Source: a phage
Sequence record: PZ445432.1
DNA length: 64,000 bases
Reading direction: 5' to 3' (one strand)
The number at the start of each line of letters is the position of its first letter. Position 1 is the stretch's first letter. Of the stretch, positions 29,122 to 60,891 are shown one piece after another. The position numbers and the translations under genes are program-made. A model generated the notes under the pieces. The model made no database searches. It saw nothing but the letters and a program-made list of their open reading frames with translations, and was not told the DNA's origin.

Positions 29122-29145
29122 TAGCCCTTCGGGGCTATTATATTT
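29122..29145 (+). terminator. rho-independent terminator after thyA
   Basis: TAGCCC-TTCG-GGGCTA hairpin followed by a T-rich tract. Confidence 0.6.
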
Positions 29146-29154
29146 AAATTTCAT

Positions 29155-29183
29155 TTGCTTATTTAGTGAAATTTAAATATAAT
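29155..29183 (+). promoter_or_regulatory. sigma70-like promoter
   Basis: TTGCTT, 17 nt, TATAAT. Confidence 0.5.
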
Positions 29184-29208
29184 ATATTTTATAAATTGGA
29201 GGTATATA

Positions 29209-35769: not shown

Positions 35770-36559
35770 ATAAATTAGAGAACAGCGGGCCGATTACGCT
35801 GAGTGCAGAATCCAAACCGGAGTGCATTGAATAGAGTCGGTGGGTTAGTTGTAAAACTAGTACACAGTGGGCGGCAATCCCGGTTAGTGGCTAGAACGTG
35901 TAAAATGGGGCGTCTGAAACCTCTCCCCTAAACTCTTCTCTAGTTTATAAATAGTGGGGTGTGGAAATCACTTATGTAGTAACACTGCCGATCTAGTATA
36001 AACGGTATTATCAAGCCGTAACTGGTGGAAGATGTAGGTTCGAATCCTACGATCGGTAAGAACTGGATAACTGGTGCTTTTAACGTAAAAGCTTCCGAGG
36101 TTAGTTGCGCACTGCCTAAACCACGCGGTAGTTGGTTCCAGACTAACCAACCAGTCTGCTGAATAGTTTTATTACGATTTAACTATGTCCAGGCTAAAGA
36201 AGAACTTTAGAAGGTATTCTAGGTGGTGAAGTTTTTCCTCCATATCGGAGTAGTTTTTCAAGCTACCAACAAAGTGGGAAATGCTGACATGAGAGATGTC
36301 ACTAATGGTGCACAATAGCACAGGTAATTCGCGATAACTCCTGTTGAGTAGCAGCAAAAGGCGGGAAGTCATGACCCCAAGCCTAACCGAGTCCTCAATA
36401 TACCGCAGGACATAACCACTAAGTCACCCTGACTTAAACTGGAAAATAATAGACGTTACTGTATTTTGTCTTGAAATACTTAATGAGTGAGACTTATGAC
36501 TCTCCCGGTATCGTCTGTATTTTTAAGAGTTTTTACGAGAGTTCTTAAAAATACTTAAA
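35770..36559 (+). ncRNA. ORF-free transcribed region, possible stable small RNAs
   Basis: About 800 nt with no plus-strand ORF, downstream of a consensus promoter; contains several hairpins and tRNA-like fragments. Confidence 0.3.
35987..36058 (+). tRNA. tRNA-like element (possible pseudo-tRNA)
   Basis: Acceptor stem GCCGATC/GATCGGT and T-arm GTAGG-TTCGAAT-CCTAC are intact, but no canonical D or anticodon stem could be folded by hand. Confidence 0.3.
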
Positions 36560-38537: not shown

Positions 38538-38615
38538 GGTTCTCAAGCTCATATGGTATGAGCACCCAGCTCATAACTGGAAGGTACGTAGGTTCGAATC
38601 CTCGGGGAGCCACCA
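38538..38615 (+). tRNA. tRNA-Met/Ile2 (anticodon CAT)
   Basis: Acceptor GGTTCTC/GGGAGCC with G-U pairs, D stem GCTC/GAGC, anticodon loop CTCATAA, TTCGAAT T-loop, encoded CCA; T stem has mismatches. Confidence 0.5.
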
Positions 38616-39193: not shown

Positions 39194-39241
39194 AACTGCC
39201 TGGTGTGATAGAGGCATCATTCCACTAATATTGGAAAACTA

Positions 39242-39472
39242 ATGAAACGAAAATTAAAAAAATCTTATATAATTAAGATAAATAAGCTAAGAAGTAGGGC
39301 AAAAGGATGGCCACTTCGGATATTAATTGCGGATAACCATATTAGATACCATGCGGAACAACGTCATTATAAACAGTGGGAGTCATACTGCCGCTCAAAA
39401 GCAGGTCGTTTAGATGGATCTTATGAGTTTCTATTTGGTAAGAAGCCTACTAGAGTAGCTTTAGGTAATTAA
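39242..39472 (+). CDS. hypothetical basic protein
   Basis: 76-aa ORF. Confidence 0.4.
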   Translation: MKRKLKKSYIIKINKLRSRAKGWPLRILIADNHIRYHAEQRHYKQWESYCRSKAGRLDGSYEFLFGKKPTRVALGN

Positions 39473-39477
39473 TACTT

Positions 39478-39568
39478 GGAAGAGCAAATCGAATTGGCGA
39501 CGAAAACCGCTTGGAAAGTGGCTGACCGGTAAAACGGCTTGAGAGTTCAAATCTCTCCTCTTCCGCCA
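39478..39568 (+). tRNA. tRNA-Ser (anticodon GGA), type II
   Basis: Acceptor GGAAGAG/CTCTTCC, anticodon loop TTGGAAA, long variable arm, T-arm GAGAG-TTCAAAT-CTCTC, encoded CCA. Confidence 0.6.
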
Positions 39569-39580
39569 AACAATTTATAT

Positions 39581-39675
39581 GGTAGGTCAATCCAACGGCT
39601 GGCGCTGGACTCCGACTTGAAATCGGTTGATCGTAGTGATACGGTGTAAGGGTTCGATCCCCTTACCTACCTCCA
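39581..39675 (+). tRNA. tRNA-Ser (anticodon TGA), type II
   Basis: Perfect acceptor GGTAGGT/ACCTACC, anticodon loop CTTGAAA, variable-arm hairpin CGTA-GTGA-TACG, T-arm AAGGG-TTCGATC-CCCTT, encoded CCA; D-loop unusually long. Confidence 0.5.
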
Positions 39676-39812
39676 AATCTTGAAGTATGCCGGAATCGGT
39701 AGACGGGGCTGCCTAAAAGGTTTATAGGGAACATCCACTCCCTGCAACATACCTCATAAAGCGGCTGAGATAAATGGTCTATCTCGTGAAGGTTCAAGTC
39801 CTTCTGCTTCTT
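39676..39812 (+). other. tRNA-like or structured RNA region, unresolved
   Basis: Contains a T-arm-like hairpin GAAGG-TTCAAGT-CCTTC and D-loop-like AATCGGTAGA, but no acceptor pairing could be found. Confidence 0.2.
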
Positions 39813-39927
39813 GATACATCTATGGCTCAAAGTGTAACGGTGCTATTTGATGCTCTTGGTAAGACTTCCCCGACATGCGTTCGGGAGTAAGCTGCTAAGA
39901 CTAGAGTAGAAGAGTTTCTGAGAGCCG

Positions 39928-40046
39928 CCACAATTGAAAATTCGTACTCGTCTTGAGCTGCGTGCAATAGGAGATAACTTGATTAGTATTCTAGAACATG
40001 CTAATTGAGGATGGTTTCGCTAACCCTGCGAGTTTTCAATTGTGGC
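39928..40046 (+). repeat. 13-bp perfect inverted repeat bracketing a 93-nt spacer
   Basis: CCACAATTGAAAA at 39928-39940 and TTTTCAATTGTGG at 40034-40046; the right arm overlaps the tRNA-His 5' end. Confidence 0.6.
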
Positions 40047-40117
40047 TATATCATAATTGGTTAATGATCCTGATTGTGAATCAGGCCTATGTGGATTCGA
40101 ATTCCACTAGCCACCCC
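40042..40117 (+). tRNA. tRNA-His (anticodon GTG)
   Basis: Acceptor GTGGCTA/TAGCCAC, D stem TCAT/ATGA, anticodon stem CCTGA/TCAGG with loop TTGTGAA, T-arm GTGGA-TTCGAAT-TCCAC, encoded CCA. Confidence 0.7.
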
Positions 40118-40143
40118 AAATTAACTTAAATAGGAAATAAAAT

Positions 40144-40341
40144 ATGGCTGATTTCTGCAAACAATGCTCCATTGATATGTGGGGCAGAGATACTGGTGAT
40201 CTTTCTGGTTTGATTACAGAAGCCGAAGTCAAAGAAGGTTATGGTGCAGTTGTGGTTTGCGAAGGATGCGGAGTTATTCGAGTAGATCATGAAGGCAAAC
40301 GTTTAGAAGAACCGGAAAATTTAGGAGAAACAAATGAGTAA
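40144..40341 (+). CDS. hypothetical zinc-ribbon protein
   Basis: CKQC ... CEGCG motif; RBS AGGAAA. Confidence 0.45.
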   Translation: MADFCKQCSIDMWGRDTGDLSGLITEAEVKEGYGAVVVCEGCGVIRVDHEGKRLEEPENLGETNE

Positions 40342-40570
40342 TGCTTTAATTAGTGAAATTATGTTAACACGTCTTGCAGAACTGCAAACTCTTCGAGATG
40401 AATCTCAGAATAACTTATCCTACCATAAACAGATGGTAGATACTCTTACTACTCGTATTGAAACTTACGAGCGTGATATTGCAGCATTACAAGCTCTTTT
40501 CTCCGTATCAGCACCAGATACGTTAGAACAGCCTGCTGTATCTCAGCCAGTAGAGACAGCATCTAGTTAA
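40334..40570 (+). CDS. hypothetical protein
   Basis: 78-aa ORF with RBS AGGAGA. Confidence 0.45.
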   Translation: MSNALISEIMLTRLAELQTLRDESQNNLSYHKQMVDTLTTRIETYERDIAALQALFSVSAPDTLEQPAVSQPVETASS

Positions 40571-60661: not shown

Positions 60662-60680
60662 AATGAGAATCATTATCATT
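60662..60680. repeat. 19-bp near-palindrome AATGAGAATCATTATCATT (left boundary element)
   Basis: Near-identical palindrome recurs at 61216-61234, so the pair brackets the iteron/DnaA/LexA block. Confidence 0.55.
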
Positions 60681-60891
60681 TAAGAAGTGGAATGCAAATG
60701 ATAATTATTCTCATTTAAGAAGTGGAATGATTCTCATTTAATAAGTGGAATGCAAATGATAATTATTCTCATTTAAGAAGTGGAATGAGAACTATTCAAG
60801 AAGTGAAACGATTCTCATTAAAGAAGCGAAACGATTCTCATCCTAGAAAGGGAATGCAAATGATAATGATTCTCATTTAAAAACGGAAGTG
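60676..60891. repeat. iteron-like direct repeats (about 8 copies of a 21-bp unit TCTCATTTAAGAAGTGGAATG)
   Basis: Copies start near 60676, 60709, 60732, 60767, 60792, 60813, 60836 and 60871; some are separated by CAAATGATAATTAT spacers. Confidence 0.7.

Follow-up and report, generated by a model that had tools for sequence, protein, structure and literature searches.

What lies between a serine and a histidine transfer RNA (tRNA) gene in the tRNA cluster of a T5-like phage, and why does sequence far upstream of the histidine tRNA pair with that tRNA's own 5' end? The question is raised by positions 39676 to 40046 of a 64,000-nucleotide (nt) stretch of phage DNA, sequence record PZ445432.1 (hereafter the window; coordinates are window positions, on the + strand unless stated). 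A sequence-only reading had treated this interval as one anonymous structured RNA, poor in open reading frames (ORFs) and ending in a long-range inverted repeat. By alignment to its relatives, the interval is instead three back-to-back RNA genes, already annotated in phage T5, and not a spacer; the repeat forms a predicted helix, here called the frame helix, whose arms take in sequence from all three of RNA I, RNA III, and tRNA-His. The account that best explains the whole, and that we hold to be rather more probable than its competitors combined, is that of three RNA genes together with a frame helix that acts as a processing stalk cut in the precursor. The RNA genes themselves are known, whereas the analysis of the frame helix appears to be new.

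The phage is T5-like (Demerecviridae, Tequintavirus), and the interval sits inside its tRNA cluster. Over the 1.2 kilobases (kb) queried (39300-40500), the sequence matches Escherichia phage HildyBeyeler at 100% identity and hundreds of T5-like phages of Salmonella and Escherichia at 91-99%. HildyBeyeler and most of the remaining records leave the 366 nt separating tRNA-Ser(UGA) from tRNA-His without annotation, or place short 'hypothetical protein' calls there. At the same slot, the T5 reference from the Ksenzenko laboratory (AY543070; the same record as NC_005859) has three consecutive misc_RNA genes: rna1 (144 nt, labelled 'tRNA-like stable RNA with unknown functions'), rnaI (107 nt), and rnaIII (106 nt), the latter two labelled 'stable RNA with unknown functions', with rnaIII abutting a 78-nt tRNA-His. 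The DT57C record (KM979354) annotates rnaI and rnaIII likewise, and rna1 is absent from it; 'stable RNA' status and mature ends are the depositors' annotation in the T5 and DT57C records. Pairwise alignment of AY543070 with the window covers rna1, rnaI, and rnaIII end to end, base for base, with identities to T5 of about 85% (RNA1), 92% (RNA I), and 100% (RNA III), and the gene order on one strand (tRNA-Ser(UGA), rna1, rnaI, rnaIII, tRNA-His) is syntenic with T5. Among phage records, RNA I is 90-100% identical in 306 and RNA III 95-100% identical in 283. The fourth stable RNA of T5, rna2H, has no match in the window. The features are as follows:

39581..39675, + strand: tRNA-Ser(UGA), the upstream neighbour (ARAGORN pseudogene mode; annotated in MZ501074 and T5)
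39679..39823, + strand: RNA1, a tRNA-like RNA with a type-II cloverleaf body (maps to T5 rna1)
39824..39930, + strand: RNA I, a rod-like RNA (maps to rnaI of T5 and DT57C, 107 nt)
39927..39946, + strand: 5' arm of the frame helix, made up of RNA I GCCA (its last 4 nt), CAAU, and the first 12 nt of RNA III
39931..39934, + strand: CAAU, the spacer separating RNA I from RNA III and lying within the frame helix (a 4-nt gap in the T5 and DT57C records)
39935..40040, + strand: RNA III (maps to rnaIII of T5 and DT57C, 106 nt; abuts tRNA-His)
40027..40046, + strand: 3' arm of the frame helix, made up of the last 14 nt of RNA III, U-1, and G1-C5 of tRNA-His
40041..40118, + strand: tRNA-His(GUG) (ARAGORN; Rfam 59.9 bits)

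The inverted repeat is perfect over 13 nt, as had been read from the sequence, with the right arm at 40034-40046, where it covers G1-C5 of tRNA-His; the left arm lies at 39927-39939, and not at 39928-39940 as first given. Through two G.U pairs, the repeat runs on inward to 39946/40027, for a total of 20 base pairs (bp). The window holds three perfect inverted repeats of at least 13 nt with a loop of at most 150 nt, vs. 0.17 expected under a first-order Markov model; taken alone this count is modest evidence and chance is still possible, and it is the comparative evidence given below that makes the predicted helix solid. The segment 39927-40046, both arms included, has z = -6.67, and within 8 kb of the cluster the repeat is the sole near-perfect long-range inverted repeat to flank an RNA gene on both sides. 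The two further perfect 13-nt inverted repeats of the window, both with short loops, are at 29136-29184 and 60662-60738.

The frame helix is found in 42/42 T5-type loci, the loci counted being those with enough upstream sequence; in all 42, CAATT follows the end of RNA I, AATT precedes tRNA-His, and the CAAU spacer is invariant. A metagenome scan by a tRNA-His D-arm pattern returned mostly unrelated tRNAs, together with 8 useful T5-like contigs. In related phages the slot is occupied by five unrelated inserts, every one of which is closed by the frame helix:

Insert 1: RNA III
Insert 2: a 63-nt RNA (atrejo, SuperGirl, S147)
Insert 3: a bare hairpin with a GCAA (GNRA) loop (L022)
Insert 4: a 133-nt RNA (L018, GSW6)
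Insert 5: a different RNA of ~133 nt (polluks, saus176N, L073)

The invariant pairing GCCACAAUU/AAUUGUGGC is lengthened in register by the ends of each insert, using different bases: GAAAAUUCGUA/UGCGAGUUUUC; GAAGUCUUUAG/CUAGAGAUUUC; AAAGU/ACUUU; GAG.AUCAUUG/CAAUGGU.CUC (with GAA/UUC in GSW6); and GAGUAUUAUUAG/CUAAUAGUAUUC. By this comparison, the slot beside tRNA-His is a swappable cassette site that is always closed by the same helix. A further structured cassette of ~110-115 nt, with several hairpins and no Rfam match, separates RNA1 from RNA I in L018 (about 1990-2100, - strand), L080 (about 840-958), and L082 (about 1040-1155).

Covariation in related genomes, whose absence the sequence-only reading had listed as counting against the long-range pairing, was found. 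Across 10 distinct variants of the two 20-nt arms, drawn from the five unrelated inserts, 97.5% of frame-helix cells are paired vs. 31-46% with slid partners, 9 of the 20 pairs are changed on both sides (0-2 with slid partners), and the covariation score is reached by 0/500 shuffles. G.U pairs are tolerated in the helix across variants, and fold stability is strand-asymmetric, both for RNA I and for RNA III (folding z = -2.85 on the + strand vs. +0.10 on the - strand); because of these two properties, selection is judged to act on the RNA. The long-range pairing is therefore genuine, and selection maintains it at the RNA level. Furthermore, L022 retains the helix without a cargo RNA, so that the helix itself appears to matter, beyond closing off RNA III. 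In AV124, Proteus phage 2, and L121, helices of different sequence recur, 17-21 bp long and with 14-16 of their pairs lying upstream of +1. In AV124 (Vequintavirinae), the 3' GCCA of tRNA-Gln and a spacer pair with a spacer and G1-C5 of tRNA-His; in Proteus phage 2 (Novosibvirus), a hairpin spans -1 to +3 of tRNA-His; and in L121, the ACCA of the upstream tRNA and a spacer pair with U-1 to U5. The AV124 insert has no relatives that carry it, and so provides no sequences for helix covariation.

In a nearest-neighbour model of 39824-40118, the frame pairs have a probability of at least 0.997 and the acceptor pairs of tRNA-His a probability of ~0; forcing the tRNA-His cloverleaf in this modelled precursor costs +12.5 kcal/mol. 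[quoted passage not shown] We propose that RNA1, RNA I, and RNA III would be co-transcribed with the flanking tRNAs as one precursor, from which host RNA-processing enzymes would excise the individual RNAs. Both arms of the helix would be transcribed before the 3' acceptor strand of tRNA-His; the frame helix would form once its 3' arm is made, and the acceptor stem of tRNA-His would then be blocked. An endonucleolytic cut in the frame helix would yield three products, namely RNA III, RNA I with a 4-nt trailer, and the tRNA-His 5' end, and the CAAU trailer on RNA I would then be trimmed back to CCA.

RNase III would be the likeliest nuclease for such a cut. The annotated ends of RNA III in the T5 and DT57C records correspond to a 5' end at 39935, after CAAU, and a 3' end at 40040, after CAAU; they are two-fold symmetric in the palindromic CAAUUG/CAAUUG duplex, giving a 2-nt 3' overhang. 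RNase III is favoured because these ends leave a 2-nt 3' overhang on a duplex of ~20 bp: the enzyme accommodates about 22 bp and leaves 2-nt 3' overhangs (PMC6212723), and it is reported to take part in T4 tRNA maturation (PMC4810235). The duplex of ~20-22 bp that flanking sequences form in an RNase III stalk is provided here by 39927-39946/40027-40046, and the corresponding duplexes of other cassettes and lineages have 17-21 bp.

Several observations weigh against this scheme. The pairs between the putative cuts are 39933-40040 (A-U) and 39934-40039 (U-A), with no G-C, and in vivo RNase III sites of E. coli usually have G-C between the cuts, which is a preference and not absolute (PMC6212723). 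RNase P is a serious rival for the cut: were it to act on tRNA-His and on RNA III's 12-bp stem, the products could be almost identical. The folding model leaves out tRNA tertiary structure and proteins. The outermost pair of the helix is lost in some phages (L031 and L033). The CCA end of RNA I and the tRNA-His sequence place constraints of their own on the outer 5 bp (GCCAC/GUGGC), so complementarity there could be partly coincidental. With these points set against the comparative data, a processing role for the frame helix in the precursor is still probable; that RNase III specifically cuts it is a narrower claim, to which we give somewhat less than an even chance.

Other explanations of the helix differ in what they take to be selected. 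It may be a terminal stem that shields RNA III, or another cassette RNA, from exonucleases, with the overlap into the neighbours a by-product of the palindromic junction GCCACAAUUGUGGC and with processing performed by RNase P and 3' exonucleases. The inner 12 bp of the helix are indeed retained in mature RNA III according to the T5 annotation, terminal stems of ~12 bp occur in other cassettes as well, GCCA and GUGGC are each constrained by their own RNA, and U at -1 is favourable to RNase P (PMC3245924 and its reference 12). However, the helix survives without a cargo RNA in the hairpins of L022 and Proteus phage 2; the CAAUU/AAUUG spacer, although part of neither mature neighbour, is unchanged in 42/42 loci; and helices of unrelated sequence reaching 3-5 nt into tRNA-His recur, whereas such helices are rare at other tRNAs (3/1185). 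We consider a purely protective stem unlikely. Selection might also lie in the DNA, with the inverted repeat marking the boundary of exchangeable cassettes at palindromic CAATTG, as terminal inverted repeats with target duplication or else as hot spots of recombination near the cluster's homing endonuclease genes. Five unrelated inserts with exactly the same flanks and CAATTG on both sides would fit such a boundary, as would the HNH endonuclease genes of the T5 cluster and the mosaic nature of the cluster (DT57C is without RNA1; L018, L080, and L082 have extra RNA1/RNA I cassettes). Against a DNA-level boundary are the frequent G.U pairs (G.T mismatches in DNA), the compensatory changes in the RNA sense, the strand asymmetry of fold stability, the inner paired extensions that vary in sequence between cassettes while keeping register, and the helices of AV124, Proteus phage 2, and L121, which have no CAATTG. 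As the explanation of the helix it is improbable, although DNA-level and RNA-level explanations are compatible and not mutually exclusive.

The sequence-only reading had called the pairing a processing or regulatory switch. The processing part is plausible on the evidence above; for the other part, nothing points to a conditional switch over a constitutive helix. A helix that tunes tRNA-His maturation to a signal would be in keeping with the predicted mutual exclusivity of frame helix and acceptor stem, but the folding model overwhelmingly favours the helix instead of balancing the two, and the analysis turned up no second conserved partner for the pairing, no ligand-binding motif, and no riboswitch match in Rfam, so that we regard a switch as very improbable. 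A group I intron, or another self-processing ribozyme, had in its favour only that the stretch is structured and non-coding; no intron or ribozyme family matches 39200-40300 at E up to 10, and none matches relatives, the region is made up of three discrete RNAs that are already annotated, and this explanation is effectively refuted. What we retain is the probable processing stalk in a tRNA-cluster precursor.

The frame helix also ends at a tRNA-His with an unusual -1 position. G1 of this tRNA is 40042, and position -1 is T (40041), opposite the C73 discriminator; CCA is encoded, and phage tRNA-His genes with an encoded G-1 served to check the register. T is present at -1 in all 42 T5-like loci examined, and the T5 record counts that T as the first base of its 78-nt tRNA-His. 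Bacterial histidine identity consists of G-1 and C73, with G-1 positioning the 5'-phosphate that is critical for HisRS (PMC9976931), and RNase P keeps G-1 only through its pairing with C73 (PMC3245924). With T in place of G at -1 in the gene, RNase P lacks the guide for keeping this position. In T5-type phages and some others, the frame helix might conceivably supply the extra 5' nucleotide that the host's HisRS needs at -1, in that a cut after CAAU, possibly by RNase III, would leave a 5'-phosphorylated U-1; such a cut would give exactly the 5' end of the 78-nt tRNA-His listed in the T5 record. To this we assign a low probability.

A survey of the 1271 distinct tRNAs in all loci fetched bears on this idea; each tRNA was scored by its longest unbroken helix between position +1 and the 250 nt upstream, and the register was set by a T-loop anchor, which mis-registered L121. 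Scores of at least 12 were obtained for 5/24 tRNA-His lineages without G-1, 0/31 with G-1, and 3/1185 non-His tRNAs, the His tRNAs being grouped as lineages and the non-His set uncollapsed (Fisher p = 0.012 and 1e-7 for enrichment in tRNA-His lineages without G-1). One of the five helix-bearing lineages is a T5-like chimera, and three have unrelated helix sequences. Counting against a role at -1, ~19 lineages without G-1 have no such helix, and the tRNA-His of AV124 is 86% identical to that of T5. In addition, the T5-like tRNA-Tyr(GTA) of L018 is abutted by a 22-bp A+T-rich hairpin that pairs with +1 to +3, so that abutting helices in the cluster are not confined to tRNA-His. If the idea were true, cutting of the helix would be a third route to the -1 nucleotide of tRNA-His, beside aberrant RNase P cleavage and Thg1 addition. 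A T5-like chimera is seen in L086 at 601-691 (Escherichia phage SelmaRatti), annotated as an 88-nt 'tRNA-His': its first 47 nt are those of T5 tRNA-His, its 3' half is different and has a long variable arm, and the acceptor 3' strand TAGCAGC mismatches the 5' strand, while the frame helix and RNA III upstream are intact.

The remainder of the interval belongs to RNA1 and RNA I. In consensus, RNA1 folds as a type-II cloverleaf: its variable arm is long, and its D and T loops resemble those of tRNA-Leu. The fold consists of an acceptor-like stem (39682-39687/39805-39810), a D arm (39688-39692/39697-39701), an 'anticodon' stem (39707-39712/39761-39766) that bears a 41-nt extension with helices of its own (39718-39720/39752-39754 and 39725-39730/39739-39744), a variable arm (39767-39772/39780-39785), a T arm (39788-39792/39800-39804), and a 3' tail (39811-39823). 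The T-arm-like hairpin noticed in the sequence-only reading is therefore present, at 39788-39804 (GAAGG TTCAAGT CCTTC); the acceptor partner said to be missing exists at 39682-39687/39805-39810, and relatives show compensatory changes there. In 31 distinct sequences, 99.5% of RNA1 cells are paired vs. 40-47% with slid partners, 9 pairs are changed on both sides vs. 0-2 in the slid controls, and the score is reached by 0/500 shuffles; the acceptor, D, and T arms and the T-loop of the tRNA cloverleaf are all present and covarying. In the Klebsiella Sugarlandvirus homologue, the fold is kept and most of the acceptor stem is replaced.

With introns allowed, ARAGORN reports RNA1 as a tRNA with a 41-nt insert at 37/38, and removal of the insert leaves a complete cloverleaf. 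What RNA1 lacks is a seven-nucleotide anticodon loop with a conserved U33: the 41-nt structured extension fills the loop, position 33 is T, G, or C among relatives, and the would-be loop residues vary (CTAAAA, CGAATA, CCAATA). An intron-containing decoding tRNA was considered and is ruled out by these non-conserved loop residues and by the 144-nt stable form of the T5 record. RNA1 cannot decode, because the extended arm replaces the anticodon loop; because the loop residues vary and the 144-nt form is named as a stable RNA in T5, RNA1 is, from its predicted fold, a tRNA mimic and not a spliced decoding tRNA. For the Rfam tRNA family RF00005, RNA1 stays under the gathering threshold (29 bits), and a scan at E up to 10 gave no match for it in the window; in phage polluks the tRNA model spans the homologue with 25.1 bits, again under that threshold.

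RNA I has a rod-like fold closed by a terminal stem of 5 bp (39824-39828/39922-39926), and its 3' end, GCCA, is tRNA-like; the CCA is invariant in 30 distinct sequences. The second hairpin of the sequence-only reading is present as the tip of this rod, at 39869-39885 (CCCGA CATGCGT TCGGG). Five pairs of RNA I are changed on both sides, among two divergent types whose alignment is doubtful in the middle. RNA III folds around a four-way junction: its terminal stem is 12 bp long (39935-39946/40027-40038) and leaves a 2-nt 3' overhang, and of the three hairpins inside, one has 12 bp (39978-40009). It is too conserved for its covariation to be informative, the 14 variants being changed mainly in loops and in one weak hairpin.

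The interval is ORF-poor, as had been stated: all its ORFs are of at most 55 amino acids. Those of 38-55 amino acids overlie the RNA genes, at 39663-39830 (- strand), 39774-39890 (+ strand), 39827-39967 (- strand), and 39998-40129 (+ strand), and several of them are listed as hypothetical proteins in public records (e.g., PP407513). Because of the RNA-level covariation, the short ORFs on the three RNA genes are probably annotation artefacts. No Rfam family except tRNA matches 39200-40300 at E up to 10, and scans of the window and five related loci at gathering and permissive thresholds gave no match for RNA I, RNA III, or the alternative cassettes. Promoter and terminator scans of the region were at chance level; for an intrinsic terminator there were only two weak 5-pair stems, also at chance level, and the frame helix is followed by tRNA-His sequence with no U-run.

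Elsewhere in the cluster, two type-II tRNA-Ser genes at 39479-39569 and 39581-39675 (GGA and UGA anticodons) are missed by default ARAGORN; in Rfam the pair is sub-gathering (21.7 bits as tRNA; 38.3 bits as tRNA-Sec for the UGA gene, 39581-39675), and both are annotated in MZ501074 and T5. According to the T5 record, the GGA tRNA-Ser with a changed anticodon does not become a suppressor. A tRNA at 38538-38612 (Rfam, 38.2 bits) is not reported by ARAGORN, and at 35986-36059 ARAGORN gives an odd tRNA-Ser with anticodon ACT (Rfam, 39 bits). The cluster holds several atypical or degenerate tRNAs. When projected on the window upstream of 39242, the MZ501074 coordinates of tRNA-Ala and tRNA-Leu fall on non-tRNA sequence; either the window diverges from HildyBeyeler beyond the upstream edge of the compared 39300-40500, or the MZ501074 annotations are unusual.

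Most genome records miss these highly conserved RNAs or call spurious ORFs on them, and the locus exposes a puzzle in the form of an E. coli phage tRNA-His with no encoded G-1 identity element. A cassette slot combined with a constant helix offers a testable handle on the processing of the T5 tRNA-cluster transcript. Phage tRNAs counter host tRNA-targeting defences (PMC11464382), and it is a matter of speculation that RNA1, RNA I, and RNA III serve as decoys for enzymes or toxins that act on tRNAs. How these RNAs are made, and whether they act as tRNA-like decoys, bears on phage-host conflict as well as on phage genome annotation.

Compared with T5, RNA1, RNA I, and RNA III of the window have the same order, lengths within 1 nt, and the same abutment to tRNA-His; in T5, however, the small ORF T5.063 separates tRNA-Ser(UGA) from rna1, whereas in the window RNA1 directly follows tRNA-Ser(UGA). 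The tRNA cluster of T4 similarly encodes small stable non-tRNA RNAs, rnaC and rnaD ('species 1 and 2'), which are co-processed with tRNAs and dispensable in the laboratory; neither of these is known to be framed by a helix overlapping a neighbouring tRNA. RNA1 resembles intron-containing tRNAs (insert at 37/38) in its complete cloverleaf and exact insert site, and is unlike them in the loop residues that flank the insert, where T5-type sequences have G or C in place of U33; archaea and eukaryotes excise such introns with a splicing endonuclease that is not known from bacteria. The -1 nucleotide of tRNA-His is obtained in bacteria by RNase P cleavage guided by G-1:C73, and in eukaryotes by Thg1 addition; Thg1 homologues are reported from a few bacteria, to which E. 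coli is not known to belong. The phage tRNA-His faces the same problem and keeps C73; the T5-type gene differs in having T rather than G at -1, so that a G-1:C73 pair cannot form. The closest parallel to the frame helix is found in the RNase III stalks of ribosomal RNA (rRNA) operons (16S and 23S), where the flanking sequences of a stable RNA likewise pair into ~20 bp; the annotated ends here are likewise staggered by 2 nt with a 3' overhang, and several products would be released at once. Unlike usual RNase III sites, the frame helix has only A-U pairs between the putative cuts, and, unlike the rRNA stalks, the stalk is here partly composed of the mature ends of its neighbours, namely the upstream NCCA and nucleotides 1-5 of tRNA-His.

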